Below, in pieces: positions 2 through 13,705 of a stretch of DNA of 13,705 bases (its first letter is position 1; the number at the start of each line of letters is the position of its first letter). A model generated the notes under the pieces. The model was not told the origin of the DNA. It did no database searches and saw nothing but the letters and a program-made list of their open reading frames with translations. The stretch lies in the IMG/VR virus record IMGVR_UViG_3300036715_001196, positions 64,001 through 77,705 of that record; one strand, written 5' to 3'. The position numbers were made by a program, and so were the translations under genes. This DNA is from a virus. Its lineage: Duplodnaviria; Heunggongvirae; Uroviricota; Caudoviricetes.

Positions 2-142
2 GATTGCGCATATATGCTCGACTCAAATCCATGCGAGTTAGAAATACTTGCTAAATTCGGTGATGAAAGAGCAATTTTATTATTATCTGCATGTAAGGCA
101 TTTGCAGCTATTAATAAGATACATACACCAGTTATTGCTTGA
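2..142 (+). CDS. 5'-truncated (window edge) C-terminal part of an Ala-Ala-X-X module protein paralogue
   Basis: Frame 2 reads DCAYMLDSNPCELEILAKFGDERAILLLSACKAFAAINKIHTPVIA*, matching the C-terminal domain of the downstream paralogues. TGA at 140-142. Confidence 0.9.
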   Translation, partial: DCAYMLDSNPCELEILAKFGDERAILLLSACKAFAAINKIHTPVIA

Positions 143-167
143 CATCTAGTTCCAACTGTCATATAAT
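139..167 (+). promoter_or_regulatory. sigma70-type promoter
   Basis: TTGACA-17-TATAAT. Confidence 0.92.
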
Positions 168-197
168 TACTACATACAAAGACCGTAGGAGTACAAA

Positions 198-629
198 ATG
201 TCTAATGCATGGGATCACTTACCAAATGCGAAACACATTGATGCATTAATTGCATCAGTTAAAGCACACCCAGAAGAATGGGGTGCGGCATATTATGCGG
301 CAAGGGATGCGGCATATTATGCGGCGTGGGATGCGGCAAGTAATGCGGCATGTAAGGGGGCAAGGCATGCAGCATGGGGTGCAGCAAGGGGTACGACGTG
401 GGAAGCGGCACAAGATGCGGCAAGGTACGTGGCATGGGGTGCAGCAAGGAATGCGGCGGGGGATGCAATACTTGCCCTTATTGCATATGACGATTGTGCA
501 TATATGATCGACTCAAATCCGGGTGAGCTTGAAATAATTGCTAAATTAGGTAACGAAAAGGCAATTTTATTATTATCTGCATGTAAGGCACTTGCAGCTA
601 TTAAGATACATAAACCAGTTATTGCTTGA
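198..629 (+). CDS. Ala-Ala-X-X module protein, 143 aa, 15 modules; function unknown
   Basis: AGGAG 187-191 and its own promoter. 28-aa constant N-terminus, 60-aa module region, 55-aa constant C-terminus. Confidence 0.92.
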   Translation: MSNAWDHLPNAKHIDALIASVKAHPEEWGAAYYAARDAAYYAAWDAASNAACKGARHAAWGAARGTTWEAAQDAARYVAWGAARNAAGDAILALIAYDDCAYMIDSNPGELEIIAKLGNEKAILLLSACKALAAIKIHKPVIA

Positions 630-654
630 CTGTTGATTCCAAGTATCATATAAT
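626..654 (+). promoter_or_regulatory. sigma70-type promoter
   Basis: TTGACT-17-TATAAT. Confidence 0.9.
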
Positions 655-684
655 TACTACATACAAAGACCGTAGGAGTACAAA

Positions 685-1095
685 ATGTCTAATCTATGGG
701 ATCACTTACTAAATGCGAAACACATTGATGCAATACTTGCATCAGTTAAAGCACACCCAAAAGAATGGAGTGCGGCATGGGATTCGGCAAGTAGTGCGGC
801 AAGTAGTGCGGCACGGTTTGTGGCAAGGGGTGCGACATGGGATGTGGCAAGGATTGCGGTGTGGGAAGCGGCAAGGGATGCGGCATGGAGTGCGGCCTGT
901 AGTGCGGCATATTATGCGGCAAGGGATGCAATCGTCGCCCTTATTGCATATGACGATTGCGCATATATGCTTGATTCACAACCAAGTGAACTTGAAATAC
1001 TTGCTAAATTCGGTGATGAAAGGGCAATTTTATTATTACCTGCATGTAAGGCATTTGCAGCTATTAATAAGACACATACACCAGTTATTGCTTGA
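685..1095 (+). CDS. Ala-Ala-X-X module protein, 136 aa, 13 modules
   Basis: AGGAG RBS, promoter 626-654, conserved termini with the INKTHTPVIA tail variant. Confidence 0.92.
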   Translation: MSNLWDHLLNAKHIDAILASVKAHPKEWSAAWDSASSAASSAARFVARGATWDVARIAVWEAARDAAWSAACSAAYYAARDAIVALIAYDDCAYMLDSQPSELEILAKFGDERAILLLPACKAFAAINKTHTPVIA

Positions 1096-1120
1096 CAGTT
1101 GATTCCAGCTATCATATAAT
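1092..1120 (+). promoter_or_regulatory. sigma70-type promoter
   Basis: TTGACA-17-TATAAT. Confidence 0.92.
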
Positions 1121-1150
1121 TACTACATACAAAGACCGTAGGAGTAGAAA

Positions 1151-1582
1151 ATGTCTAATCCATGGGATCACTTACCAAATGCGAAACACATTGATGCATT
1201 AATTGCATCAGTTAAAGCACACCCAAAGGAATGGGGTGCGGCATATTATGCGGCAAGGGATGCGGCATATTATGCGGCGTGGGATGCGGCAAGTAATGCG
1301 GCATGTAAGGGGGCAAGGCATGCAGCATGGGGTGCAGCAAGGGGTGCATCGTGGGATGCGGCAAGGGATGCGGAATGGGATGCGGAATGGGATGCGGCAA
1401 GGAATGCGGCAGGGGATGCAATACTTGTCCTTATTGCATATGATGATTGCGCATATATGCTCAACTCAAATCCATGCGAGTTAGAAATAATTGCTAAATT
1501 CGGTAATGAAAAAGCAATACTTTTATTATCTGCATGTAAGGCACTTGCAGCTATTAAGATACATAAACCAGTTATTGCTTGA
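1151..1582 (+). CDS. Ala-Ala-X-X module protein, 143 aa, 15 modules
   Basis: AGGAG RBS, promoter 1092-1120, conserved termini. Confidence 0.92.
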   Translation: MSNPWDHLPNAKHIDALIASVKAHPKEWGAAYYAARDAAYYAAWDAASNAACKGARHAAWGAARGASWDAARDAEWDAEWDAARNAAGDAILVLIAYDDCAYMLNSNPCELEIIAKFGNEKAILLLSACKALAAIKIHKPVIA

Positions 1583-1607
1583 CAGTTGATTCCAACTGTC
1601 ATATAAT
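1579..1607 (+). promoter_or_regulatory. sigma70-type promoter with a 9-bp palindrome across -35 and spacer
   Basis: TTGACA-17-TATAAT; TGACAGTTG-attc-CAACTGTCA at 1580-1601. Confidence 0.92.
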
Positions 1608-1637
1608 TACTACATACAAACACAGCAGGAGTAGAAA

Positions 1638-2165
1638 ATGTCTAATGCATGGGATCACTTACCAAATGCGAAACACATTGATGCAATACTTGCATCAGTT
1701 AAAGCACACCCAAAAGAATGGGTTGCGGCGTGGAATGCGGCAAGGGTTGCGGCGTGGAATGTGGTAAGGGATGCGGCAAGGGGTGCAGCGTGGAGTGCAG
1801 CCTGGTGTGTGGCGTGGGATGCGGCAAGGGGTACAGCGTGGGATGCGGCAAGTAGTGCGGCAAGTAGTGCGGCAAGTAGTGCGGCAAGGGATGCGGCATG
1901 GAGTGCGGTGTGGGATGCAGCCTGGGGTGCGGTAAGGGATGTAGCAAGTGGTGCGGTAAGGGATGCGGCATATTATGCGGCAAGGGGTGCGGCGTGGGAT
2001 GCAATACTTGCCCTTATCGCGTATGATGATTGCGCATATATGCTCGACTCCGATCCGGGCGAGTTAGAAATACTTGCTAAATTCGGTGATGAAAGAGCAA
2101 TACTTTTATTACCTGCATGTAAGGCATTTGCAGCTATTAAGATACATAAACCAGTTATTGCTTGA
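1638..2165 (+). CDS. Ala-Ala-X-X module protein, 175 aa, 23 modules
   Basis: AGGAG RBS, promoter 1579-1607, conserved termini. Confidence 0.92.
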   Translation: MSNAWDHLPNAKHIDAILASVKAHPKEWVAAWNAARVAAWNVVRDAARGAAWSAAWCVAWDAARGTAWDAASSAASSAASSAARDAAWSAVWDAAWGAVRDVASGAVRDAAYYAARGAAWDAILALIAYDDCAYMLDSDPGELEILAKFGDERAILLLPACKAFAAIKIHKPVIA

Positions 2166-2190
2166 CTGTTGATTCCAGCTATCATATAAT
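2162..2190 (+). promoter_or_regulatory. sigma70-type promoter
   Basis: TTGACT-17-TATAAT. Confidence 0.9.
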
Positions 2191-2220
2191 TACTACTCAT
2201 TAAACAAACAGGAGTACAAA

Positions 2221-2934
2221 ATGTCTAATGCATGGGATCACTTACCAAATGCGAAACACATTGATGTATTAATTGCATCAGTTAAAGCACGCCCAAAAGA
2301 ATGGAGTGCGGCATATTATGCGGCAAGGGATGCGGCATATTATGCGGCGTGGGATGCGGCAAGTAATGCGGCATGTAAGGGGGCAAGGCATGCAGCATGG
2401 GGTGCAGCAAGGGGTACGACACGGGAAGCGGCACAAGATGCGGCAAGGTATACGGCATATTATGCGGCAAGGGGTGCGGTGTGGGATGCAATACTTGCCC
2501 TTATTGTATATGATGATTGCGCATATATACTCGACTCCGATCCGGGCGAGTTAGAAATACTTGCTAAATTCGGTGATGAAAGAGCAATACTTTTATTACC
2601 TGCATGTAAGGTATTTGCAGCTATTAAACATGTTAAATGGATCGGACCAGTGTTTAGGTGTGCTAAATTCCATTTGTCGCCGGGAATCAAACAGAAGGAC
2701 GGGATGCTTAATTATATATGTCTAGCAATCGACAATGTTATCGCAGTTCCAGATGAAGCAAAGTCTGCTGCAAGGAAAATAATTAATGACAGGCTAGATG
2801 GCTATGCGGATGTATCTATTTGGTTGCAACATGTAGCTGGAATTCATCCGCGTCGACTTTCATATAAGGCAGTACAAACATTCCGGCACGAATGGCTCGA
2901 TGAATTGATTAAAGAGTTTTCAGTAAATGACTAA
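2221..2934 (+). CDS. Ala-Ala-X-X module protein (15 modules) fused to an unrelated ~100-aa C-terminal domain, 237 aa
   Basis: Matches the family up to ...AAIK (~2628), then continues in frame as HVKWIGPVFRCAKFHL...RHEWLDELIKEFSVND. Confidence 0.88.
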   Translation: MSNAWDHLPNAKHIDVLIASVKARPKEWSAAYYAARDAAYYAAWDAASNAACKGARHAAWGAARGTTREAAQDAARYTAYYAARGAVWDAILALIVYDDCAYILDSDPGELEILAKFGDERAILLLPACKVFAAIKHVKWIGPVFRCAKFHLSPGIKQKDGMLNYICLAIDNVIAVPDEAKSAARKIINDRLDGYADVSIWLQHVAGIHPRRLSYKAVQTFRHEWLDELIKEFSVND

Positions 2935-3445
2935 TAAAGAAATTGCAATTAAAGTCTTTAAAAGTCATTTAGCACTTGCACAAGATAGTCCAACTAAGTT
3001 TAAGAATACAGTTATCAACGAGATTATTAAGACACTTGACTGCGGGCTACGTGTTGCAACTGCATTCTATAATGAGGCTGTAAAACAAACCCCTAAGAGC
3101 ATAAAGCTCGTTCGCATTCCTGTCAAGAAGTTTATTATTAAAGACAAGCATAGTAAGGTTGAAACAGTCGAAGTTGAGAGTAGCGAACCTGAAGACGCAG
3201 ATTGTTATACTGTATTTGAGATTGTAGGGCAAGTGGTTGGTCGCACTAAGTCTTTTTCAACAAAGGGAGAAGCTACTAAGGATTTCAGTTTTAGAGTTAC
3301 ATATTGGCCGGACAGCATTTGGTTGATGATTAAAGGTCTTGGTAGGAACTCGGGTGAAGAGTATCGTGTTGAGCGAAAGATGAAATGGGAGTTGAAGCAT
3401 ATTCCTAAACATCTTCAAAAAGAAGTTGATATGGCTTCATCTTGA
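2927..3445 (+). CDS. Hypothetical protein, 172 aa, with an N-terminal helical motif shared with two other genes in the window
   Basis: 8-nt overlap with the upstream gene, weak AAAGAG RBS, long open frame. Motif VINEIIKTLDCGLRVATAFYN. Confidence 0.85.
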   Translation: MTNKEIAIKVFKSHLALAQDSPTKFKNTVINEIIKTLDCGLRVATAFYNEAVKQTPKSIKLVRIPVKKFIIKDKHSKVETVEVESSEPEDADCYTVFEIVGQVVGRTKSFSTKGEATKDFSFRVTYWPDSIWLMIKGLGRNSGEEYRVERKMKWELKHIPKHLQKEVDMASS

Positions 3446-3454
3446 TCATATAAT
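3426..3454 (+). promoter_or_regulatory. sigma70-type promoter with the -35 inside the upstream CDS
   Basis: TTGATA-17-TATAAT. Confidence 0.8.
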
Positions 3455-3484
3455 TACTACTCATTAAACAAACAGGGGTACAAA

Positions 3485-3907
3485 ATGTCTAATACGTGGG
3501 CTCACTTACCAAATGCGAAACACATTGATGTATTAATTGCATCAGTTAAAGCACACCCAAAAGAATGGAGTGCGGAGCGGGATGCGGCAATGGATGCGGA
3601 ATGGGACGCGGCAAGGGATGCAGCATGGAGTGCGGTGTGGGATGCAGCAAGGGATGCAGAGTGGGATGCGGCGTGGGATGCGGCGTGGGATGCGGCAAGG
3701 GATGTGACATGGGACGCGGCAAGTAGTGCGGCATGGAATGCAATCGTTGCCCTTATTGCGTATGATGATTGTGCATATATGCTCAACTCAGCCCCAAGCG
3801 AGTTAGAAATACTTGCTAAATTAGGTGATGGAAGAGCAATACTTTTATTACCTGCATGTAAGGCATTTGCAGCTATTAATAAGACACATACACCAGTTAT
3901 TGCTTGA
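3485..3907 (+). CDS. Ala-Ala-X-X module protein, 140 aa, 14 modules
   Basis: AGGGG RBS, promoter 3426-3454, conserved termini. Confidence 0.92.
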   Translation: MSNTWAHLPNAKHIDVLIASVKAHPKEWSAERDAAMDAEWDAARDAAWSAVWDAARDAEWDAAWDAAWDAARDVTWDAASSAAWNAIVALIAYDDCAYMLNSAPSELEILAKLGDGRAILLLPACKAFAAINKTHTPVIA

Positions 3908-3932
3908 CAGTTGATTCCAGCTGTCACACAAT
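3904..3932 (+). promoter_or_regulatory. Degenerate promoter cassette
   Basis: TTGACA-17-CACAAT; spacer identical to that of 6294-6322. Confidence 0.7.
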
Positions 3933-3965
3933 TACCACACATTAAACAACCCACAAGAGTACAAA

Positions 3966-4382
3966 ATGTCTAATCCATGGAATCACTTACCAAATGCTAA
4001 ACATATTGATGCAATACTTGCATCAATTAAAGCACACCCAAAAGAATGGGGTGCGGCGTGGGGTGCGGCAAGTAGTGCGGCAAGGGGTGCGGCATATTAT
4101 GCGGCAAGGGGCGCGGCAACCAGTGCGGCGTGGGAAGCGGCAAAGGGTGCAGCAAGGAAAGTGGAGTGGGGTGCGGCATATTATGCGGCAAGGGGCGCGG
4201 CAGGTGGTGCGACACAGGGCACGGCAAGGGATGCGGCGTGGGATGCAATCATTGCCCTTATCGCGTATGATGATTGCGCATATATGCTCAACTCAACTCC
4301 AGATGAACTTGAAATACTTGCTAAATTAGGCGATAGAAGAGCAATACTTTTGTTACCTGCATGTAAGGCATTTGCAGCCTAA
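3966..4382 (+). pseudogene. Decaying Ala-Ala-X-X module protein copy (16 modules, 138 aa, C-terminal 9 aa lost)
   Basis: A net 2-nt deletion (gcagctattaagata to gcagcctaagata) creates TAA at 4380-4382. Its -10 box is CACAAT and its RBS is AAGAG. It may still be translated from read-through mRNA. Confidence 0.7.
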
Positions 4383-4403
4383 GATACATAAACCAGTTAT
4401 TGC

Positions 4404-4432
4404 TTGACAAATAATCCCAACTGTCATATAAT
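4404..4432 (+). promoter_or_regulatory. sigma70-type promoter
   Basis: TTGACA-17-TATAAT. Confidence 0.92.
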
Positions 4433-4464
4433 TACTACATACACAAACATAACAGGAGTACAAA

Positions 4465-4830
4465 ATGCTTAAACGTGTTATTACGAAGGCCCACAAACAT
4501 CATGGTACAGCATACCCCGCTAAAGCAACAAAATACTTAGTGGACGTTAAACCCGGTGTAAGTGTTGCTATCTTCGACGACAGTACTGGTACAGAAGTTG
4601 CTGGTGCAAGCTTTAAGATTGGTGATCAGGCGGAATACGATTCCTTTAATTTAAGTTATTACGGGACTATCACTGCTATCAGTGAAAAGACTGTAACAAT
4701 AACATCACGCAAAGATACTCGAAACGAAAAAGTATATCGGTTGGATATGCACAAATTTTGCTGGCGTAATTACAACTTCAATTTAGAGAAAGCCCAAGCA
4801 GAGAATACTGAAACTAGCATGTATATCTAA
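4465..4830 (+). CDS. Hypothetical beta-rich phage-type protein, 121 aa
   Basis: AGGAG RBS and promoter 4404-4432. Motif FKIGDQAEYDSFNLSYYGTITAISEKTVTI suggests an SH3-like barrel (inference). Confidence 0.88.
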   Translation: MLKRVITKAHKHHGTAYPAKATKYLVDVKPGVSVAIFDDSTGTEVAGASFKIGDQAEYDSFNLSYYGTITAISEKTVTITSRKDTRNEKVYRLDMHKFCWRNYNFNLEKAQAENTETSMYI

Positions 4831-4831
4831 C

Positions 4832-5161
4832 ATGCCTGTCTTTGCATCATTAGGGCATCAAATGCAGTGTAACAAACGCAACGGTTATAAACCTGATCGT
4901 TGCGTTTGTGACAAAGACCCTGCCCTTAAAGGGGCTAAAGGTGGCAACTGTAACAGATAAGCATGCCAAGCACCTAATGCTTACTGGTACAACAAAGGCA
5001 CAAACAAATTCTATTGCGAAGATTGTGCTAAAATGATTAACCGGCAACCAACACAAGTCAGTACAGTACATACTTGTGTTCAATTCAGCCACCCGACGAA
5101 AATGTTGACTCCTAGAACCGTGTGTGCTAACATACAAACTTATGGAGGCACACATGGCTAG
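4832..5161 (+). pseudogene. Cys-rich, zinc-finger-like gene interrupted by an in-frame TAA at 4958-4960
   Basis: Manual translation: MPVFASLGHQMQCNKRNGYKPDRCVCDKDPALKGAKGGNCNR*ACQAPNAYWYNKGTNKFYCEDCAKMINRQ... The stop splits a C-x4-C...C-x2-C motif. ATG lies 1 nt after the upstream TAA. Confidence 0.65.
5105..5133 (+). promoter_or_regulatory. sigma70-type promoter, extended -10
   Basis: TTGACT-17-TAACAT with upstream TGn. Confidence 0.6.
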
Positions 5162-5285
5162 AGTCCCAACTCAAGAAGAAATTCAACACATCATGGAAAT
5201 TACGGGCTTGGAATACACCCAAGCCTATAATCACCTCGTACAATGCTACGAGTTACAAGACCGTAAGGCGCGAGGTAAATTATGA
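5154..5285 (+). CDS. Small protein, 43 aa (MARVPTQEEIQHIMEITGLEYTQAYNHLVQCYELQDRKARGKL)
   Basis: GGAGG 5144-5148, promoter 5105-5133. Below the ORF-track cutoff; translated by hand. Confidence 0.8.
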   Translation: MARVPTQEEIQHIMEITGLEYTQAYNHLVQCYELQDRKARGKL

Positions 5286-5389
5286 TATTCTGGTTAATGA
5301 TAGTATGTATATTTCTACTGTTGAATAATAGTATCTTCATTGGGCTTGCACTTTTAGCATTGATAATTTATTTAGATAAAAAGCGTTGA
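5282..5389 (+). CDS. Small membrane peptide, 35 aa (MIFWLMIVCIFLLLNNSIFIGLALLALIIYLDKKR)
   Basis: ATGA overlap with the previous gene, hydrophobic with a basic tail. The stop is the TGA of the next TTGACA. Confidence 0.65.
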   Translation: MIFWLMIVCIFLLLNNSIFIGLALLALIIYLDKKR

Positions 5390-5414
5390 CAACGGAACCT
5401 ACTTCCGGTATAAT
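5386..5414 (+). promoter_or_regulatory. sigma70-type promoter
   Basis: TTGACA-17-TATAAT; spacer contains CGGAA/TTCCG inverted repeat. Confidence 0.92.
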
Positions 5415-5451
5415 ACATACATCGCAAACATTATTATATAAGGAGTAGCAA

Positions 5452-6285
5452 ATGTCAATTCAACAAGTAAAAGATAAGTGTGCAGAGGTTTTCGCTAAAG
5501 CAACAGAACTGTACGGTGTTGATTGCTCTGCCGTAGCTATTAACTTCAACTTGCGTGGGCGTGTTGCAGGAAGCGCATCTAGACAAGGTTACTGTAATGG
5601 CCCACAAAAGCATACCTTAGAATTCAACAAAGACTTGATTGATCGTGAATTAGACACCATACTTACCGATGTAGTTCCGCATGAAATTGCTCATATCGTG
5701 TGTTTTATGAACCCAAGACTAGGTTCTAACCACGATGCTGGTTGGGCGCATGTATGCAGAAAGCTAGGCGGTACTGGTAGTCGAACACATAGTATGCAGA
5801 TTGTGTTTGGTAAAGGCAAAACATACGAATACACGACGACAGCTGGTGTAGCTATTCGTCTAAGCGAGCAGAGACATAAGGCAGTGCAAAAAGGTGGAAC
5901 ATTTACTTGCAAAGTTAGAAGCAAAGGTAAAATCAACAAGGAATGCTCGTTCACTATTGTCGGCATTGCTGGGCAAACACTTTCTAAACCAATTGCTGGT
6001 AACGTTCCAACAACACCGCTTGTAGATGGAGTGTCTGAAATACCAAAAGCACCTATAGTAGCAGATATTGCTAAAGAATTAAAAATACCTGTAGTGAAAG
6101 TAAAGTTAGCCAAAGGTAATGAAAGTAAGGCCGATGCTGCTAGACGTTTAATAAGTGTAGGCTTTGAAAGCGGCTTACACGAAAGTGAAATCATTGCCAG
6201 TATTATGCAAGCTAACGAGTTTGACTTACGTTTGGCTACTGCTTACTACAAAAACAATGCAAAGAAGCTTGGGTTTATTAGTTAA
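5452..6285 (+). CDS. sprT: SprT-like zinc metalloprotease (family-level call) with a C-terminal helical domain, 277 aa
   Basis: VVPHEIAHIVC (HExxH, aa 77-81), a downstream H-x-x-x-W motif (HDAGW) and N-terminal FNLRGRVAG, as in SprT proteins. AAGGAG RBS, promoter 5386-5414. Confidence 0.85.
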   Translation: MSIQQVKDKCAEVFAKATELYGVDCSAVAINFNLRGRVAGSASRQGYCNGPQKHTLEFNKDLIDRELDTILTDVVPHEIAHIVCFMNPRLGSNHDAGWAHVCRKLGGTGSRTHSMQIVFGKGKTYEYTTTAGVAIRLSEQRHKAVQKGGTFTCKVRSKGKINKECSFTIVGIAGQTLSKPIAGNVPTTPLVDGVSEIPKAPIVADIAKELKIPVVKVKLAKGNESKADAARRLISVGFESGLHESEIIASIMQANEFDLRLATAYYKNNAKKLGFIS

Positions 6286-6293
6286 AATAATAG

Positions 6294-6322
6294 TTGACAG
6301 TTGATTCCAGCTGTCATATAAT
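6294..6322 (+). promoter_or_regulatory. sigma70-type promoter
   Basis: TTGACA-17-TATAAT. Confidence 0.92.
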
Positions 6323-6352
6323 TACTACACATTAAACAAACAGGAGCAAACT

Positions 6353-6664
6353 ATGTATCCAATATTACTTAAATGTGTTTATATACACCTGCTAACAGTT
6401 GAAGCAAGTTCAGTTGAAGAAGCAATTGAAATTGCTAATGAAGATTATTGTATCTGTGATAACGATATTACTACAATCGAGGGTGATTGGGAATTGGATG
6501 ATACAGACTTTGCTTCTGCTGAAATGTTCAGTAATTGGCAAGACAGTCCCGTCGATGTTATCAAAGAAGCAAATAAGCTGTTGGTAGCTCACGGTTTAGT
6601 GTTTGTTGAGCAGGAAACCGATAAAGATACATATCAATTCGTATTGCAGAAAGTAGGCACATAA
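6353..6664 (+). CDS. Acidic hypothetical protein, 103 aa
   Basis: AGGAG RBS, promoter 6294-6322. Confidence 0.85.
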   Translation: MYPILLKCVYIHLLTVEASSVEEAIEIANEDYCICDNDITTIEGDWELDDTDFASAEMFSNWQDSPVDVIKEANKLLVAHGLVFVEQETDKDTYQFVLQKVGT

Positions 6665-6900
6665 TGAAAACAATTCAAGAAATCAAAACACTTGCTTCAC
6701 AGGCATCTTTCTTTGTACTACCATCCGGTACTCGTCTTCGTATGCGATACTGTAATGCGGAGATGTTCTCCGCATATGAAGAAGGCACTAATGTGAAGCA
6801 TTGGATTCGCTACGAAGCAGTCGATCTTAACGATGGCGAAACAGACTTTTTAGCATTAACCAGTTTGAAACACCCGCAGACTACACGGAGTATATCATGA
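6664..6900 (+). CDS. Hypothetical protein, 78 aa
   Basis: TAATG stop/start overlap with the upstream gene. Confidence 0.75.
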   Translation: MKTIQEIKTLASQASFFVLPSGTRLRMRYCNAEMFSAYEEGTNVKHWIRYEAVDLNDGETDFLALTSLKHPQTTRSIS

Positions 6901-7238
6901 CAGTAGATGTCCAAGGTAAGACAATTTGCGTCAATCAAAAGGTTGCTCGTGCTGCGAAATTACAAGTAAAGGATGGTTTGTGTATCCAAATCTGTACTGT
7001 AACACGTATCAATGAGGGGGCAGTATATCTCGACAATAGCAAACAGCCTATGAAGTTCCCTGAGCGGTTAGCTATTGTGGAACGTGCTCCACTCAATGAA
7101 GTTCAAGAGAATGTATTAAATGGGTATCACGAACGACTTGATAACGATGAGATTGCTGAAGAATACGACTTACTTGAAACCGAAGTTGCTGATATAATCG
7201 ATTGGCTGGATGAAAACGGCTATCATGTAAATGATTAA
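6897..7238 (+). CDS. Hypothetical protein, 113 aa, with a beta-rich N-terminus and an acidic HTH-like C-terminus
   Basis: ATGA overlap and GGAG RBS. C-terminal DEIAEEYDLLETEVADIIDWL has HTH-like spacing (inference). Confidence 0.8.
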   Translation: MTVDVQGKTICVNQKVARAAKLQVKDGLCIQICTVTRINEGAVYLDNSKQPMKFPERLAIVERAPLNEVQENVLNGYHERLDNDEIAEEYDLLETEVADIIDWLDENGYHVND

Positions 7239-7243
7239 AGTTG

Positions 7244-7272
7244 TTGACAAATGATTTCATTCGCAGTATAAT
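7244..7272 (+). promoter_or_regulatory. sigma70-type promoter
   Basis: TTGACA-17-TATAAT. Confidence 0.92.
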
Positions 7273-7302
7273 TATTACACATTAAACAAACAGGAGTACA
7301 AG

Positions 7303-7692
7303 ATGGAATCATTGCAAGAACGCATCCTTGAAGTATGTAATAACTTCTCAGAAGCAAGGTTCTCTAATTACTACAGCGGTCGTTGTATGTATAACCGTCA
7401 GTGTGTTGGTATTACAGGCAGCATGCATGAATGCATGAATGCAATTGCACACCTTGTCAAGAGCATGACTTCCGAATTGTGTCGAACTGCACGTGATGCA
7501 GATACACAGGGGGATATGGTTGAGTCACTTGATAACATGCAAGATCGCTTCGAACGTGATATCGATACTCTGCTTGACTTCAAGCAAGACAGTATGGGGT
7601 GTGATATTATTATCTATTGGGAACGTTTAACACCTATCGAAAACTTCGAAGACGAAGACGAAGACGAAGACGAAGACGAAGACGAGTTTTGA
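7303..7692 (+). CDS. Hypothetical protein, 129 aa, with an (ED)6 acidic tail
   Basis: AGGAG RBS, promoter 7244-7272. Confidence 0.88.
   Translation: MESLQERILEVCNNFSEARFSNYYSGRCMYNRQCVGITGSMHECMNAIAHLVKSMTSELCRTARDADTQGDMVESLDNMQDRFERDIDTLLDFKQDSMGCDIIIYWERLTPIENFEDEDEDEDEDEDEF
7648..7683 (+). repeat. (GAAGAC)6 coding microsatellite
   Basis: Six perfect hexamer units encoding EDEDEDEDEDED. Confidence 0.95.
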
Positions 7693-7717
7693 CATAGTAA
7701 TAAATCTGCATTACAAT
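7689..7717 (+). promoter_or_regulatory. sigma70-type promoter overlapping a terminator
   Basis: TTGACA-17-TACAAT. Confidence 0.8.
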
Positions 7718-7748
7718 ATGGGCTGCTTATGTAGCCCATATTGTTTTT
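7713..7748 (+). terminator. Intrinsic terminator
   Basis: ACAATATGGGCTGC-ttat-GTAGCCCATATTGT (14 bp, one G-U) followed by TTTT. Confidence 0.75.
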
Positions 7749-7763
7749 ATAAAGAGTAATAGA

Positions 7764-8012
7764 ATGATTAAAATACTTATAGTAGGTTTCCTAATCGGAA
7801 CATGGTACGGTATCTTTACCTCGGAGCTTGCAGGGTCTTTGATCTGTATTACATCCGCAATACTAGCATACTATGCAGAGGCATATCCTATAAAACAAAG
7901 GCACACTCGTAAGCATGCCCCTAGTCAGCCCAACACACTGCAACTGCTTGACGAGCAGTGTTGTGAGTCGTCAAGCTTAAATTCTGACCCTAGGTTTCCA
8001 ACCCAAAAGTGA
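7764..8012 (+). CDS. Putative membrane protein, 82 aa
   Basis: Two hydrophobic N-terminal segments. Promoter 7689-7717; RBS is weak (AAAGAG). Confidence 0.6.
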   Translation: MIKILIVGFLIGTWYGIFTSELAGSLICITSAILAYYAEAYPIKQRHTRKHAPSQPNTLQLLDEQCCESSSLNSDPRFPTQK

Positions 8013-8091
8013 AAACCAGATTTGGTTTTTAAAATTGGAAATTTAATTCCAAATCCTATGCGAAAATCTTGCCTATAGGTCTAAACAGGTA

Positions 8092-8120
8092 TTGACCTAA
8101 GTCCCTTTGTGTCATATAAT
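8092..8120 (+). promoter_or_regulatory. sigma70-type promoter
   Basis: TTGACC-17-TATAAT followed by the cassette leader. Confidence 0.85.
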
Positions 8121-8150
8121 TACTACATATTAAACAAACAGGAGCATAAC

Positions 8151-8363
8151 ATGGCACAATTTTTATTAGTATCAACTGAGCAACGGCTTGCAATATTGAA
8201 GCGTTCGTTATCGACATTTATTGATCGATGTGAAGGTACTGAATGGGAGGCTGATATTAACGCAGCACAGACTATGTTAGATGAGTTACAGTCTAACACT
8301 GACGTAACAACAGCTACATCTGCAGTCCTTAGTAATTGGTGTGATACTGTACCTGCACAATGA
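8151..8363 (+). CDS. Hypothetical protein, 70 aa (start reassigned from 8109)
   Basis: Cassette leader with AGGAG and ATG 8151 exactly 30 nt after TATAAT 8115-8120. Confidence 0.8.
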   Translation: MAQFLLVSTEQRLAILKRSLSTFIDRCEGTEWEADINAAQTMLDELQSNTDVTTATSAVLSNWCDTVPAQ

Positions 8364-8436
8364 CGCGCTAGTATTCTATATTCCACAAATTTATTGTAAT
8401 ATAGCAACCAAAGTAGCCAAATGAATGCCTGAATAC

Positions 8437-8464
8437 TTGACTACTTTTATTTTGACTGTATAAT
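8437..8464 (+). promoter_or_regulatory. sigma70-type promoter with no downstream gene
   Basis: TTGACT-16-TATAAT. Confidence 0.6.
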
Positions 8465-8470
8465 ATAGAT

Positions 8471-8586
8471 ATTCTATATATTCACATAGGCACTACGTAT
8501 CTCGTCTACCGGAACAGGGGTTAGCCGATCTCTACAAGGGGTAGTTGGAACAGTATTCGAAAGGATGTGTTCCGACTATTTTTTTT
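8471..8586 (+). ncRNA. Candidate ~115-nt non-coding RNA
   Basis: Promoter 8437-8464 followed by a stretch with no ATG or RBS-led ORF, ending in a GAAA-loop hairpin plus T8. The 5' end is estimated. Confidence 0.45.
8542..8586 (+). terminator. Intrinsic terminator
   Basis: TAGTTGGAACA...GAAA loop...TGTTCCGACTA followed by T8. Confidence 0.75.
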
Positions 8587-8680
8587 GGATTATGTTTCAG
8601 GATTTGAAAATCTAGATTGGGAGTATAGTATAGGTTGGGTAGTGTATTGCTGTATAGCATTCACACTCCTAGGTTTTCAA

Positions 8681-8713
8681 TCCTACATCGAATTCCTACA
8701 TCGAATTCCTACA
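8681..8713. repeat. 13-nt tandem repeat TCCTACATCGAAT x2.5
   Basis: Units start at 8681, 8694 and 8707 (partial). Confidence 0.9.
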
Positions 8714-8740
8714 AAGGTACTGTAGTAAGCACTTACTTTG

Positions 8741-8869
8741 GTACCTCACACCTCGCGGCCTATCATCTAGGGAAAATTTGCGAGGTTGACCAACAACTGC
8801 TGTACCTCACACCTCGCGGCCTATCATCTAGGGAAAATTTGCGAGGTTGATCAATGGCTGTACCTCACA
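8741..8869. repeat. Identical 49-nt direct repeat x2 (period 61) plus a partial third copy
   Basis: GTACCTCACACCTCGCGGCCTATCATCTAGGGAAAATTTGCGAGGTTGA at 8741-8789 and 8802-8850; GTACCTCACA again at 8860-8869. Confidence 0.93.
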
Positions 8870-8944
8870 ACGAACTAATAGGTTGGTCGTGTGTTACCCG
8901 TGAAGTACAGCCACAAGAATACAGCATTGCAAAGTATTCAGTCA

Positions 8945-8974
8945 CAAATAAAGCCCCTTGCGGGGCTTTATTTG
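8945..8974 (-). terminator. Intrinsic terminator, probably bidirectional
   Basis: Perfect 13-bp stem CAAATAAAGCCCC/GGGGCTTTATTTG with a GCAA loop on the - strand, 7 nt past the stop of 8982..9389. Confidence 0.88.
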
Positions 8975-8981
8975 CTTTCTG

Positions 8982-9389
8982 TTACGCTTTGACTAATGCA
9001 GCTTTCTTTGTCTTTGCAGCTTTTTCGATCGCTGCATCTGCTTCTGCTTCTGTTACACCAAGCAAGACAAGTGAATTATCTTTCTTTTTGTACACATTAA
9101 ACAGCTTTACTGCTGGCGCTGTTTCAATAACTTCTGCTACTTTCTTTTTGCGCCCGCCGTTATTTTTGCCTTCGGGGCGGCCTAAACCAACTACAAGCTC
9201 GGGATGTGCAGCTTTGCACTGTTTGAATGCGAAATTGTAGTGTGTTGCTGCCGCTGCTCGCGTGCAATCAAATTCCAGTTCTAACCAAGCAAGAATCTCT
9301 TTACGGAAACGTGTGTTGCCGAGTTCTGCACGTTGTGGCAACATTTCCATAAATTTGTTGTTTGCTGCTGGGCGAATACCTTTGTCCAT
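8982..9389 (-). CDS. Hypothetical protein, 135 aa (MDKGIRPAANNKF...; start reassigned from 9452), sharing a helical motif with 2927..3445
   Basis: AAGGAG RBS and a consensus promoter upstream on the - strand; terminator 8945-8974 downstream. Confidence 0.88.
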   Translation of the reverse strand: MDKGIRPAANNKFMEMLPQRAELGNTRFRKEILAWLELEFDCTRAAAATHYNFAFKQCKAAHPELVVGLGRPEGKNNGGRKKKVAEVIETAPAVKLFNVYKKKDNSLVLLGVTEAEADAAIEKAAKTKKAALVKA

Positions 9390-9420
9390 TTTACTACTCC
9401 TTATGTGTTTGTGTATCAAA

Positions 9421-9449
9421 ATTATACTGCGAATGGAACTACTTGTCAA
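9421..9449 (-). promoter_or_regulatory. sigma70-type promoter (- strand, proximal)
   Basis: TTGACA-17-TATAAT on the reverse complement. Confidence 0.92.
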
Positions 9450-9666
9450 CAACTATTTGCATTTATTTTTGCATCTAGTTAAGGAGTTGTATTTCCTAAC
9501 TCCATGTATTGATTATATAGATAGTAGTTCCACGTGTCAACCACTATTTTACCAAAATTTAAATTATTTTTAAATCGTGCAGCTTATGCTCGTCAATCAT
9601 GTTTGTCGTCGCGAGGTGTACTCTGCTAGTAAAATAAATGCAAATAGTAGTTGACAAGTAGTTCCA
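9434..9666. repeat. 36-bp inverted repeat (35/36 identical): 9434-9469 and 9631-9666
   Basis: AAAATAAATGCAAATAGT(T/A)GTTGACAAGTAGTTCCA, covering the upstream A-tract and -35 of two divergent promoters. Confidence 0.9.
9512..9540 (-). promoter_or_regulatory. sigma70-type promoter (- strand, distal)
   Basis: TTGACA-17-TATAAT on the reverse complement. Confidence 0.85.
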
Positions 9667-9679
9667 GGTATCATATAAT
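9651..9679 (+). promoter_or_regulatory. sigma70-type promoter
   Basis: TTGACA-17-TATAAT with an A-rich upstream tract. Confidence 0.92.
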
Positions 9680-9709
9680 TACTACACATTAAACAAACAG
9701 GAGTAGAAA

Positions 9710-10153
9710 ATGTCTAATCCATGGGATCACTTACCAAATGCGAAACACATTGATGCCATAATTGCATCAGTTGAAGCACACCCAGAAGAATGGGCTGCGG
9801 CGCGGACTGCGGCTCGGGTTGCGGCGTGGGATGCGGCAAGGAATGCGGTGTGGAATGCGGCATATAGTGCGGCGTGTGATGCGGCAAGGAATGCGGAGTG
9901 GAATGCGGCAGGTGGTGCGGCGGCGGATGCGGCAAGTAGTGCGGCAAGTAGTGCGGCATATTATGCAGCAAGGGGCGCAGCGGGGGATGCAATCATTGCC
10001 CTTATCGCGTATGATGATTGCGCATATATGATCGACTCAAATCCGGGCGAGCTTGAAATACTTGCTAAATTCGGTAATGAAAAAGCAATTTTATTATTAC
10101 CTGCATGTAATGCATTTGCAGCTATTAAGATACATAAACCAGTTATTGCTTGA
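9710..10153 (+). CDS. Ala-Ala-X-X module protein, 147 aa, 16 modules; orphan copy 5.3 kb from the main array
   Basis: AGGAG RBS, promoter 9651-9679, conserved termini. Confidence 0.92.
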   Translation: MSNPWDHLPNAKHIDAIIASVEAHPEEWAAARTAARVAAWDAARNAVWNAAYSAACDAARNAEWNAAGGAAADAASSAASSAAYYAARGAAGDAIIALIAYDDCAYMIDSNPGELEILAKFGNEKAILLLPACNAFAAIKIHKPVIA

Positions 10154-10660: not shown

Positions 10661-10865
10661 CTTACCTTCAAACGTTCGTGCTGTCAAGGCTAAGAAGCTA
10701 ACAGCAGGAATGAAGATGTATTTTCATAATTCATCGCCCATGTTTGTTAATAGCATTGATACAAACAGCGAGGGCAAAGTTGTTGTTCACTGTGGATATA
10801 CCGACGGTGACGAAGCTACTCCTATCTTGTTTAACAGCGAGGACAGGGCTTTAATTATAAATTAA
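10647..10865 (+). CDS. Hypothetical protein, 72 aa
   Basis: GAGGA RBS; overlaps the upstream gene by 14 nt. Confidence 0.75.
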   Translation: MKIISLPSNVRAVKAKKLTAGMKMYFHNSSPMFVNSIDTNSEGKVVVHCGYTDGDEATPILFNSEDRALIIN

Positions 10866-10868
10866 TGG

Positions 10869-10909
10869 TTGACAGTTGGGAGTATCTATGTAATAATATA
10901 GACACTAAC
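10869..10909 (+). promoter_or_regulatory. sigma70-type promoter with the -10 inside an inverted repeat
   Basis: TTGACA-17-AATAAT with TGn; AGTATCTAT/ATAGACACT (8/9). Confidence 0.72.
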
Positions 10910-10928
10910 ACACTGAAGGAGAAACAAA

Positions 10929-11216
10929 ATGGCTTACAAAGTTCCGGGCACTAAATGCGATCCAAGCTTAGAAACTTGTTCAGCTCAAGGTCGTTGTACT
11001 TTTGAACTTAAAGCAGCAGCAGCAGAAGCTGGTTTGCCGTTGCGTAACTTCTCAATAAGCTATCCGTCACATCGCCGTATTCGTAAAGCGGCTAAGCGTT
11101 ATGATACAGGCATGCCTGCTATCGGGAACTTTGAGCGTAGCATCTACAAGATGTTCCGCGATTTCGAAGCTGAGTTTAGAGCAGAATTTATTGATAAGCC
11201 GATATTCTCTGGTTGA
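10929..11216 (+). CDS. Hypothetical protein, 95 aa
   Basis: AAGGAG RBS, promoter 10869-10897. Confidence 0.82.
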   Translation: MAYKVPGTKCDPSLETCSAQGRCTFELKAAAAEAGLPLRNFSISYPSHRRIRKAAKRYDTGMPAIGNFERSIYKMFRDFEAEFRAEFIDKPIFSG

Positions 11217-11454: not shown

Positions 11455-11500
11455 TGAACAAGTAGTTCATTCCGTAGTTAAACTTTTAAGGAGTAGTAAA

Positions 11501-11704
11501 ATGAAGAAATTATTTTTGTTGGTTGCTATGTTTGCTGTTATGGTATCCCCTTTCTCAGCATTTGCTGGCTCGAACACAATGCCACCAAAGCCGCCAGTGT
11601 ATGGTAAAGTTGGTTGCCAAGCAGACGGCACATTCACCCTCGTCACTTACACGTTGCATGGTGTAACATACACTGTCAAGTTGCCACATTACAAGTGCTA
11701 TTAA
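11501..11704 (+). CDS. Small exported protein with a Sec-type signal peptide, 67 aa (start reassigned from 11435)
   Basis: AAGGAG RBS. MKK, hydrophobic core, then AFA|G cleavage motif. Two Cys in the mature part. Confidence 0.8.
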   Translation: MKKLFLLVAMFAVMVSPFSAFAGSNTMPPKPPVYGKVGCQADGTFTLVTYTLHGVTYTVKLPHYKCY

Positions 11705-11723
11705 TCTAGCAACAACTTAAAAG

Positions 11724-11747
11724 AAGCAGGCTACGGTCTGCTTTTTT
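11724..11747 (+). terminator. Intrinsic terminator with a C(UACG)G tetraloop
   Basis: AAGCAGGC-TACG-GTCTGCTT followed by TTTT. Confidence 0.88.
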
Positions 11748-11816
11748 AATGGACACAAGTACCTCGGAACCTAGCCGTAGGTCCATATATAAATTGTGAG
11801 ATACTTAAAATAGTGC

Positions 11817-11855
11817 TTGACAGGTAGGGACATTTCATCTACAATGTACTTACCT
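11817..11855 (+). promoter_or_regulatory. sigma70-type promoter with the -10 inside an inverted repeat
   Basis: TTGACA-17-TACAAT; AGGTAGGGACATT/AATGTACTTACCT (11/13 Watson-Crick). Confidence 0.85.
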
Positions 11856-11875: not shown

Positions 11876-12109
11876 ATGTCTACTACTATCCCTACAGAAC
11901 AGCGCGTAAGCTTTCTTATTGCTACATACAGCGAAGGTGGGTATGAAGCTGCACAAATCACAAAAAAGAACCCATTGTACTACATAACCGAGCTTGAAGA
12001 TATAGGCCCAATGTATATTATGGATGATTACGGCAACACTGTAAAAGTCGACTGGGACATACACGCACAACAATGCGTTGCATACCCGCCGCTTAACGCA
12101 TTAACATAG
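11876..12109 (+). CDS. Hypothetical protein, 77 aa (start reassigned from 11864)
   Basis: GGAG RBS; ATG 30 nt after TACAAT 11840-11845. Confidence 0.78.
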   Translation: MSTTIPTEQRVSFLIATYSEGGYEAAQITKKNPLYYITELEDIGPMYIMDDYGNTVKVDWDIHAQQCVAYPPLNALT

Positions 12110-12181
12110 TCTTATGTACACGCCTTTTGTATGCAGACACTGGGCTGCATACGTTGCGGCAGGGGCTACAAAATAAAGGAC

Positions 12182-12207
12182 AAAAAGCAGGCTACGGTCT
12201 GCTTTTT
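12182..12207 (+). terminator. Intrinsic terminator, duplicate of 11724-11747
   Basis: AAAAAGCAGGC-TACG-GTCTGCTTTTT. Confidence 0.88.
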
Positions 12208-12350
12208 AATGGCCACAAGTATCTCGGAACTACTAACAGAGCTAGTCGAGCCATAGTTGTGAGGTATATAAGCCTTTAACTGATCCTACCTCGGAACTTA
12301 TATAACCTAACCTAAGGTTATGCTTTGTCTTCGAGAGTATAAAATAAAGG

Positions 12351-12390
12351 TTGACTACTGGAAATATTTCATTTATACTATATTTACAGT
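12351..12390 (+). promoter_or_regulatory. sigma70-type promoter with the -10 inside an inverted repeat
   Basis: TTGACT-17-TATACT; ACTGGAAATAT/ATATTTACAGT (10/11). Confidence 0.82.
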
Positions 12391-13133: not shown

Positions 13134-13363
13134 AGCAATATTAGATTGCTATTTTTATTTGCTATTTTTATTTCCTATTTTTGCCTCGTGTTCTGACCAC
13201 AGGCCTATATGTAAAACACGAGAGCATATACGCGCTACCCTACATAAACTAAAAAGCAATCTAATATTGCTTTTTTATTTCCTATTTTTACCTCGCTGCT
13301 TGCCTGCCGTCGCCTATATGTAAAACACGAGAGCATATACTCGCTACCCTACATAAACTAAAA
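13134..13363. repeat. Two imperfect direct-repeat units, each with a 17-bp palindromic site, a T-rich tract and a 52-nt block
   Basis: 52-nt block at 13203-13254 and 13312-13363 (1 mismatch). The 17-mers at 13134-13150 and 13255-13271 are exact reverse complements. Confidence 0.88.
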
Positions 13364-13705
13364 GACTATGTCTTGACACCTTTACCATTTAAGGATAGAT
13401 ACCTCACGCATTAAACACGGACCTAAAGCAGGTTATAGATTATCTCCGAGGTACTAAAAGACTTGTTGACAAATGACAACACAGATACCTCACGCATTAA
13501 ACACGAACCTAAAGCAGGTTATACATTGTCCCCGAGGTACTAAAAGACTATGTCTTGACACCTTTACCATTTAAGGATAGATACCTCACGCATTAAACAC
13601 GAACCTAAAGCAGGTTATACATTGTCCCCGAGGTACTAAAAGACTATGTCTTGACACCTTTACCATTTAAGGATAGATACCTCACGCATTAAACACGAAC
13701 CTAAA
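13358..13705. repeat. Non-coding tandem array with 96/86/96-nt units plus a partial fourth, running off the window
   Basis: CTAAAAGACT starts at 13358, 13454, 13540 and 13636. The complete units contain TTGACA and TACCTC-N42-GAGGTA. Confidence 0.93.

Follow-up and report, generated by a model that had tools for sequence, protein, structure and literature searches.

A virus-only family of small helical proteins with a 12-nucleotide repeat core, expanded across a Caudoviricetes contig

Results

A protein family with constant ends and a modular middle

The DNA analysed here (the window, 13,705 nucleotides) comprises the final 13.7 kb of a 77,705-bp IMG/VR viral contig (IMGVR_UViG_3300036715_001196, Caudoviricetes, positions 64,001 to 77,705), which is linear and has an estimated completeness of about 20% (CheckV). 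It encodes nine copies of a family of small proteins, all on the plus strand (Table 1), in which the two ends are held in common and the middle of the protein is built from tandem Ala-Ala-x-x (AAxx) units. A first-pass annotation, made from the letters of the window, had described a shared N-terminal end of 28 aa and a shared C-terminal end of 55-56 aa; alignment of the window copies recovered both, the latter at about 55 aa. The conserved N-terminal end is characterised by the motif W-x-H-L-P-N-A-x-H-I-D and the C-terminal end by A-L-I-A-Y-D-D-C-A-Y-M-L-D-S...L-L-L-P-A-C.

The nine paralogues listed by the first-pass annotation were all found at the coordinates it gave, and its proposal that the array extends upstream of the window is borne out by the copy at 2-142, which starts at contig position 63708, and by further members across the contig. 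The family is larger than those nine copies, since the window is one end only of a much larger family that is spread across the whole 77.7-kb contig. A search of the contig with one copy returned 32 matching stretches, which correspond to at least 26 genes and a 53-aa remnant. Twenty-one of these members are of the repeat type, and five (at contig positions 38882, 45510, 51887, 61044 and 62365) have an ordinary, non-repetitive middle between N- and C-terminal ends like those of the repeat copies.

Two window copies depart from the common arrangement. Copy 3966 appears weakened, with a -10 box that reads CACAAT, a ribosome-binding site (RBS) that reads AGAG and a 2-nt deletion leading to an early TAA, which leaves the protein 9 aa short. 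Copy 2221 is fused in frame to a domain that also occurs in three separate upstream paralogues (10715-11044, 11480-11818 and 12027-12365 of the contig piece L039). This phrog_8421-like domain is 102-113 aa long and ends in QTFRHEWLD(E/Q)LI(K/S)EFS, and the stop codon of each separate domain gene overlaps the start codon of a non-repeat family member (ATGA). One fusion and three cases of translational coupling suggest from gene arrangement that the family and this domain may work together. Complex prediction for a non-repeat member and its translationally coupled upstream partner gave a score of 0.00, which speaks neither for nor against binding, and a word-based search with the partner protein returned only the query and near copies of it.

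Table 1. Family copies and promoter-leader cassettes in the window
Feature	Position	Strand	Description
Family copy	2..142	+	3' end only (46 aa); start lies upstream of the window
Promoter-leader cassette	139..197	+	TTGACA, 17 nt, TATAAT, AGGAG; -35 over upstream TGA
Family copy	198..629	+	143 aa, 15 AAxx modules
Promoter-leader cassette	626..684
Family copy	685..1095	+	136 aa, 13 modules
Promoter-leader cassette	1092..1150
Family copy	1151..1582	+	143 aa, 15 modules; first 9 modules identical in DNA to copies 198 and 2221
Promoter-leader cassette	1579..1637
Family copy	1638..2165	+	175 aa, 23 modules; longest copy
Promoter-leader cassette	2162..2220
Family copy	2221..2934	+	15 modules; fused in frame to unrelated 102-aa domain (2626-2931, phrog_8421-like)
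Truncated cassette	3426..3484	+	-35 TTGATA inside upstream gene, 17-nt spacer, TATAAT
Family copy	3485..3907	+	140 aa, 14 modules
Promoter-leader cassette	3904..3965		weakened
Family copy	3966..4382	+	138 aa, 16 modules; apparently weakened
Promoter-leader cassette	9651..9709
Family copy	9710..10153	+	147 aa, 16 modules; isolated

The 12-nucleotide repeat

The first-pass annotation observed that the middle of each window copy is an exact multiple of 4 aa, and this rule extends to the contig as a whole: every one of the 21 repeat copies has a middle that divides evenly into 4-aa (12-nt) units, with 11 to 23 modules per gene and 322 modules in total. The unit has the form GCG-GCA-NNN-NNN, and codon usage within it is specific to position. 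Across the 322 modules the first Ala is encoded by GCG in 78% of cases and the second by GCA in 59%; the x3 codon is mostly TGG, AGG, TAT or AGT, and the x4 codon mostly GAT, GGT, TAT, AGT or AAT. At x4, GAT occurs 118 times and GAC only twice, and both TAC and AAC are missing among the 14 commonest x3/x4 codons listed. Such position-specific codon usage, with synonymous variety close to nil, shows that the units are related by duplication at the DNA level rather than by convergent selection on the protein. The repeat tracts are G-rich, with a GC skew of up to 0.35, and their other reading frames remain open.

The order of the modules obeys a grammar. Modules with Arg at x3 are followed by modules with Trp in 57 of 109 cases and by another Arg module in only 18 of 109, and Tyr modules are followed by Arg modules in 27 of 37. 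Tyr at x3 belongs to a Tyr-Tyr (YY) pair in 35 of 37 instances across the contig; the count of 12 such pairs reported earlier for the eight complete window copies is exact, and in nine of the 12 the pair is followed by x-A-R/K. A weaker alternation of aromatic residues and Arg is present in metagenomic relatives. In a stable alpha-helix an aromatic residue and an Arg are suitably placed four residues apart, and an Asp three or four residues before an Arg. The module order appears to suit stabilisation of this kind, through i/i+4 aromatic-Arg and Asp-Arg pairs.

Promoter-leader cassettes

A sigma-70-like site lies about 59 nt upstream of the ATG in every complete window copy, the promoter match being 12/12 at 139, 1092, 1579 and 9651, 11/12 at 626, 2162 and 3426, and 10/12 at 3904. 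The -35 element (TTGAC) overlaps the TGA stop codon of the preceding gene, and the RBS is of the AGGAG type. The earlier statement that each gene has its own promoter and RBS is thus correct for every complete copy in the window, with the qualification that those of copy 3966 are weakened. Consensus sigma-70 promoters are strongly biased in orientation along the contig, 48 being found on the plus strand and three on the minus strand, and the family is probably expressed early from these host-type promoters, as judged from their sequence.

Promoter, inverted-repeat arms, leader and RBS together form a cassette of about 60 nt, which also precedes unrelated genes at 4404, 6294, 7244, 8092 and 10150. 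The inverted-repeat arms (TGACA../..TGTCA), seen at 139-167 and in the other cassettes, comprise the -35 element, TTGACA(g), and the bases immediately before the -10 element (cTGTCA-TATAAT), so that the promoter would sit in a potential stem-loop. The arrangement resembles that of promoter-early stem-loop (PeSL) cassettes, through which genes are shuffled in T4-type phages (Arbiol et al. 2010, PMC2839356), where the small non-essential early genes of the hyperplastic regions each have a strong sigma-70-like promoter and the repeated intergenic regulatory cassette can be a site of recombination. The cassettes described here show the same features, namely a putative strong sigma-70-like promoter with inverted-repeat arms that is repeated between small genes. 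Unlike PeSL, they mostly link genes of one protein family, whose ends supply additional homology.

Distribution of the family

The family is virus-only, widespread, often present in several copies, and unusually expanded in the phage represented by this contig. A word-based search identified 298 relatives, and an exhaustive profile search returned 833 clusters at 50% identity with E<=1e-3, of which 550 remain at E<=1e-10. Other phage contigs carry from one to eight copies per 20 kb or less, with repeat and non-repeat forms mixed. A complete 64.9-kb phage with direct terminal repeats carries two to three members, indicating that the family is not confined to jumbo phages. Among 185,579 prokaryote species (one genome each) only three matches were found, all on contigs of metagenome-assembled genomes (MAGs); each of these contigs, which carry the labels Parabacteroides, Verminephrobacter and Armatimonadetes, has one full-length member of the repeat type, and they may be binned phage DNA or prophages. 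No match to the window (megablast) or to one copy (tblastn) was found in 50,697 records of cultured phages, and a word-based search with a non-repeat copy returned only itself and near copies.

Searches of Pfam, PADLOC, NCBIfam and PDB sequences gave nothing meaningful; in Pfam, seven repeat and four non-repeat copies had no match at E<=1, nor did any of 88 relatives at E<=0.01. The sole library match is phrog_8332 (PHROGs v4, no annotation), which repeat copies hit at E 3e-12 and 15 of the 88 non-repeat relatives at E 2e-7; the alignment covers only positions 149-225 of the 248-position profile, which correspond to the variable helical part and not to the conserved ends. A literature search for the repeat motifs found nothing relevant.

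For 108 of the best 148 representatives it was possible to parse the middle, which ranges in length from 23 to 108 aa, is mainly AAxx in 19% and is clearly not so in 54%. As most relatives lack the repeat, the repeat is best regarded as a derived state of a variable helical region within a compact all-alpha domain. A tree of the conserved ends is compatible with a single clade of this phage's 21 repeat copies (approximately unbiased test, p-AU 0.94), as expected had they been amplified within the lineage. Over the 166 tips of the conserved-ends tree (78 columns, with no shuffle control) the state of the repeat changes 31 times. Codon differences between paralogues in the C-terminal end are half synonymous (1583 synonymous against 1593 non-synonymous), which fits purifying selection on this part of the protein.

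Predicted structure

In the AlphaFold2 (AF2) model of a non-repeat copy, which is of high confidence, some nine helices pack into a compact bundle, with a predicted local distance difference test score (pLDDT) of 92.7 and a predicted template-modelling score (pTM) of 0.87. A repeat copy is modelled as a similar helical bundle at a pLDDT of 76, falling to 57-70 within the repeat, where the predicted helices are 14-18 residues long, about four units each, and form a bundle rather than one long helix. Neither model gave a fold match above noise against the PDB (Foldseek; VIA-align, wide), AFDB clusters or the ESM Atlas, nor did the repeat model against BFVD. The best-scoring rows were uncharacterised AFDB entries, with a template-modelling (TM) score by query of 0.57-0.59, and 8ows_A, with Z values of 4.5-4.8.

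Exchange between paralogues and variation between strains

Blocks of modules are shared between paralogues far more often than shuffling of module order would allow. Identical runs of at least three modules link 16 gene pairs, many of them at different offsets, compared with 0.8 pairs expected and a maximum of five in 200 shuffles of module order; copies 198, 1151 and 2221 have their first nine modules in common and then diverge. The ends of the genes also have discordant histories: the nearest paralogue judged by the N-terminal end is not the nearest judged by the C-terminal end, the two sets of distances are weakly correlated (r=0.31), and similarity between paralogues is independent of their physical distance.

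Comparisons between strains, all of which are based on short-read metagenome assemblies, show that the family genes are the most variable spots between near-identical strains. In a 6.1-kb contig that is 99.8% identical to and collinear with positions 49167-55285 of our contig, there are 13 differences, and six of these single-nucleotide polymorphisms fall in the 135-nt repeat core of copy 52886 (binomial P=1.7e-7), where the changes affect five codons, all of them non-synonymously. In a co-occurring strain the positional orthologue of copy 9710 is 15 modules long instead of 16; it differs by 9% over the gene and its promoter cassette, with a 12-nt indel, as against 0.8% in the flanks. At contig position 47644 (comparison over 46816-48026), the contig of another sample matches ours without a difference over the 837 nt upstream, beyond which it carries a different family gene body, the repeat of which resembles that of copy 67966; either a paralogue has replaced the gene or the assembly is mis-joined at this point. 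Contigs from the assemblies of four other samples are collinear with positions 61648-65361 at 99-100% identity and without module indels, and their few differences are gathered in patches within the conserved ends; of three such patches examined, two have 20-25-mers in common with other paralogues.

Shared blocks in excess of shuffles, discordant ends and strain differences that include module indels, block replacement and clustered non-synonymous changes together uphold the earlier suggestion of a recombination-diversified family, and we infer from these sequence patterns that recombination is the cause of the diversity. That the array might be an assembly artefact, an outcome named beforehand as fatal to this suggestion, is very unlikely, since independent contigs follow the same gene order at 99-100% identity, and those over 61648-65361 are free of module indels. 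In the Logan contigs of four DNA runs (microbial mat and sediment), every run contains the unique parts of the window at about 10-20x; the contigs break inside family genes and hence bear on neither array order nor module variation. A search for RNA runs containing the window, or one gene, listed none.

Other features of the window

An SprT-like metalloprotease-domain protein of 277 aa is encoded at 5452-6285 (Pfam E 4.6e-10), and is the only window gene with relatives, albeit distant, in cultured phages. These number 49 records, 34 of them from Aeromonas phages and the remainder from phages of Pseudomonas, Cronobacter, Vibrio, Ralstonia and others. On the minus strand the window has a single clear gene (8982-9452), which encodes a basic protein of 156 aa with no family; two perfect minus-strand consensus promoters lie at 9540 and 9449, and a strong terminator-like hairpin lies past its 3' end at 8945-8974. 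The 129-aa protein encoded at 7303-7692 has an acidic DEDEDE tail, which is specified by a perfect (CGAAGA)6.5 repeat at 7647-7685. Summed contig depth at this repeat is about 50-fold higher in all four Logan runs, and loose contig ends run from it into unlike sequence, which points to cross-mapping of unrelated simple-repeat contigs. Non-coding tandem repeats occupy 13146-13705 and reach the contig end; they consist of a 109-nt unit (13159-13363, 1.9 copies) and a 96-nt unit (13357-13705, 3.7 copies, the last 2.3 of them identical), each unit of either kind containing a TTGACA. No tRNA or Rfam match was found in scans of the window.

Discussion

A possible repertoire of early binder proteins

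The reading that we favour, with a probability of about 45%, is that the family may constitute a repertoire under diversification, whose proteins would act early as binders or inhibitors in the service of host takeover or counter-defence. Its members are small (about 105-175 aa), predicted all-alpha and cytoplasmic proteins, virus-only and expanded by lineage, that are probably made early from host-type sigma-70 promoters. The conserved N- and C-terminal ends would pack as one scaffold and the helical region between them would form the variable part, which in this phage lineage has become a 12-nt tandem repeat. This repeat may change in three ways: modules are gained or lost, single positions mutate, and paralogues swap blocks. 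The gene ends, which are conserved, and the recurring promoter-leader cassette would be the homology arms for such swaps. The outcome would be a set of related proteins with different helical surfaces, in which the middle, as the specificity surface, would set what each copy binds; the targets are most likely variable host proteins that would be bound or inhibited.

Several observations weigh against this proposal. The most conserved residues lie in the ends and not in the middle, which also fits a function carried by the ends. The module grammar, with its alternation of aromatic residues and Arg and its Asp at x4, corresponds to what a self-stabilising helix needs, so that much of the vocabulary may reflect structure. 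Nothing in the fold or family matches suggests a binder, and the isoelectric points of the copies range from 4.5 to 8.8 with no common charge theme; DNA mimicry was also dropped as a candidate on this ground. Copies 63708, 64198 and 64685 have identical module strings in four assemblies from one habitat, and change is therefore not fast. For the conserved ends, the pairwise homoplasy index (PHI) test did not reach significance (p=0.19), and the case for recombination consequently rests on the shared blocks and the discordance between ends. Finally, mis-joins between paralogues in short-read assemblies could mimic exchange, above all at 47644.

The main rival explanation, which we regard as somewhat unlikely, places the function in the ends, for example in recognition of a conserved host target or in a ligand or metal site near H13/D15 and D98/D99/C100. 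The middle would then be slippage-prone filler or a length spacer, and the copies would reflect dosage or passive amplification by the cassettes. The near-invariant residues are indeed all in the ends, the middle varies from 23 to 108 aa among relatives and is non-repetitive in about half of them, and the module grammar is what helix stabilisation would favour. The cassette also drives unrelated genes, as PeSL elements do in T4-type phages (PMC2839356), and tandem arrays of more than 30 similar genes in the jumbo phages G and 121Q have been read as plain duplication (Hua et al. 2017, PMC5646251). Those arrays resemble the present one in being a big lineage-specific expansion of one small gene in a large phage genome, whereas here the copies are distributed in several clusters over at least 70 kb, carry a copy-specific internal repeat and exchange blocks. 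Dosage alone would not require copies that are 9-13% diverged in their ends and yet intact. Nor does filler readily account for strain differences that cluster in the core of the repeat and, in the clearest case, include no synonymous change, or for x3/x4 positions at which synonymous variation is almost nil while amino-acid variety is high.

A bolder form of the repertoire proposal would see in the family a phage counterpart of antigenic-variation and immune-repertoire systems, in which at least 26 expressed cassettes have their helical specificity regions continually rewritten by short templated conversion between paralogues and by gain and loss of 12-nt modules, and in which strains of one phage that co-occur carry different sets of inhibitors, matched to variable defence proteins of their hosts. 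We consider this unlikely.

It is improbable that the family is a distant branch of the Imm5 or Imm5_like immunity proteins, the array then being a phage polyimmunity locus directed against toxin-type effectors (deaminases, nucleases) of host defences or competitors. Imm5 proteins are mostly alpha and are found in polyimmunity loci (PMC3482391), and a language model places clusters of Imm5, Imm5_like and Imm6, many of them viral, among the neighbours of a non-repeat copy and of a repeat copy alike, at scores of 0.78-0.83 that fall below the 0.9 mark of the tool. The top structural row for both AF2 models, 8ows_A, belongs to a toxin-immunity complex, of which chain A may be either partner, with VIA-align values of Z 4.8, root-mean-square deviation (rmsd) 3.5 A and 100 aligned residues for the repeat model and Z 4.5, rmsd 4.0 A and 90 aligned residues for the non-repeat model; these Z values are well below the stated noise level of the aligner for helical proteins. 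Membership of Imm5_like (PF21805) or Imm5 (PF14423) is not supported by hidden Markov models (HMMs) or by profile-profile comparison. Neither family appears among the Pfam searches of copies and relatives reported above (the cut-off of PF21805 being 25 bits), the PF21805 and PF14423 models found nothing in the contig at E<=10 (in six frames for PF21805), and hhalign of three family profiles against seven PF21805 members, a small reference, gave probabilities of 0.2%, 1.5% and 15.5%, compared with 100% for an internal control in which two of the family profiles were aligned with each other. Both groups are small, mostly alpha, Ala-rich and often viral, and the Imm5_like members compared also have Ala-rich helices resembling A-A-x-x. 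The end motifs of our family are missing from those members, and there are no toxin genes near the family copies. When immunity paralogues have diverged within an array, they presumably give cover against many toxins (Zhang et al. 2012, PMC3482391), and by analogy it is possible that the family works in an Imm5-like way, as arrays of small inhibitors.

A dedicated mechanism (a diversity-generating retroelement or phase-variable slippage), a role of the repeat at the DNA level, or an assembly artefact is very improbable. In favour of such readings, the tandem repeats are G-rich and open in other frames, and Logan contigs break inside the family genes. Against them, no RVT_1 domain was found in the contig at E<=1 (the contig covering about 20% of the genome); the strain differences seen in the repeat (C>T, T>G, G>A, G>C) are not confined to adenine; four assemblies agree in their module strings; the frame and ends are conserved across hundreds of relatives; and independent contigs reproduce the gene order.

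Comparison with other repeat proteins

The first-pass annotation loosely likened the repeat to that of transcription activator-like effectors (TALEs), with a free di-residue code displayed on a constant Ala-rich helix. The resemblance is that of tandem units differing mainly at two adjacent residues. In contrast, the TALE unit is about 34 aa long (33-35), folds alone and reads one base, with its variable di-residue in a loop, whereas the unit here is 12 nt or 4 aa, about one helical turn, its neighbours are correlated with one another, and nothing indicates binding of nucleic acid. The short unit, the grammar of module order, the compact bundle predicted by AF2 and the 54% of parsed relatives that lack AAxx all speak against a free code of this type.

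Ala-based or charged single alpha-helices are a second point of comparison, and include the designed A(EAAAK)n linkers and the ER/K helices. The repeat described here is like these in its high Ala content, in its i/i+3 and i/i+4 pairs of opposite charge and in changing length by whole units, and it is unlike them in being rich in Trp and Tyr, in having its predicted helices packed in a bundle, and in that both ends return to one scaffold.

Significance

Small early genes of unclear role abound in large phages, and lineage-specific expansions are among the few clues to the conflict between phage and host. The family described here is large and virus-only, has neither a Pfam family nor an annotated library family, and has a predicted fold that is confident but unmatched. 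Natural strains differ chiefly in its genes, and its clean design, with conserved ends and a modular middle, makes experiments in which specificity is swapped simple. Should the middle prove to be filler, the family would provide a case in which tandem 12-nt slippage reshapes proteins without breaking them. If, as the repertoire proposal has it, the copies inhibit host defences, they would represent a compact natural scaffold for variable helical binders, and an example of the evolution of a viral repertoire by micro-recombination.

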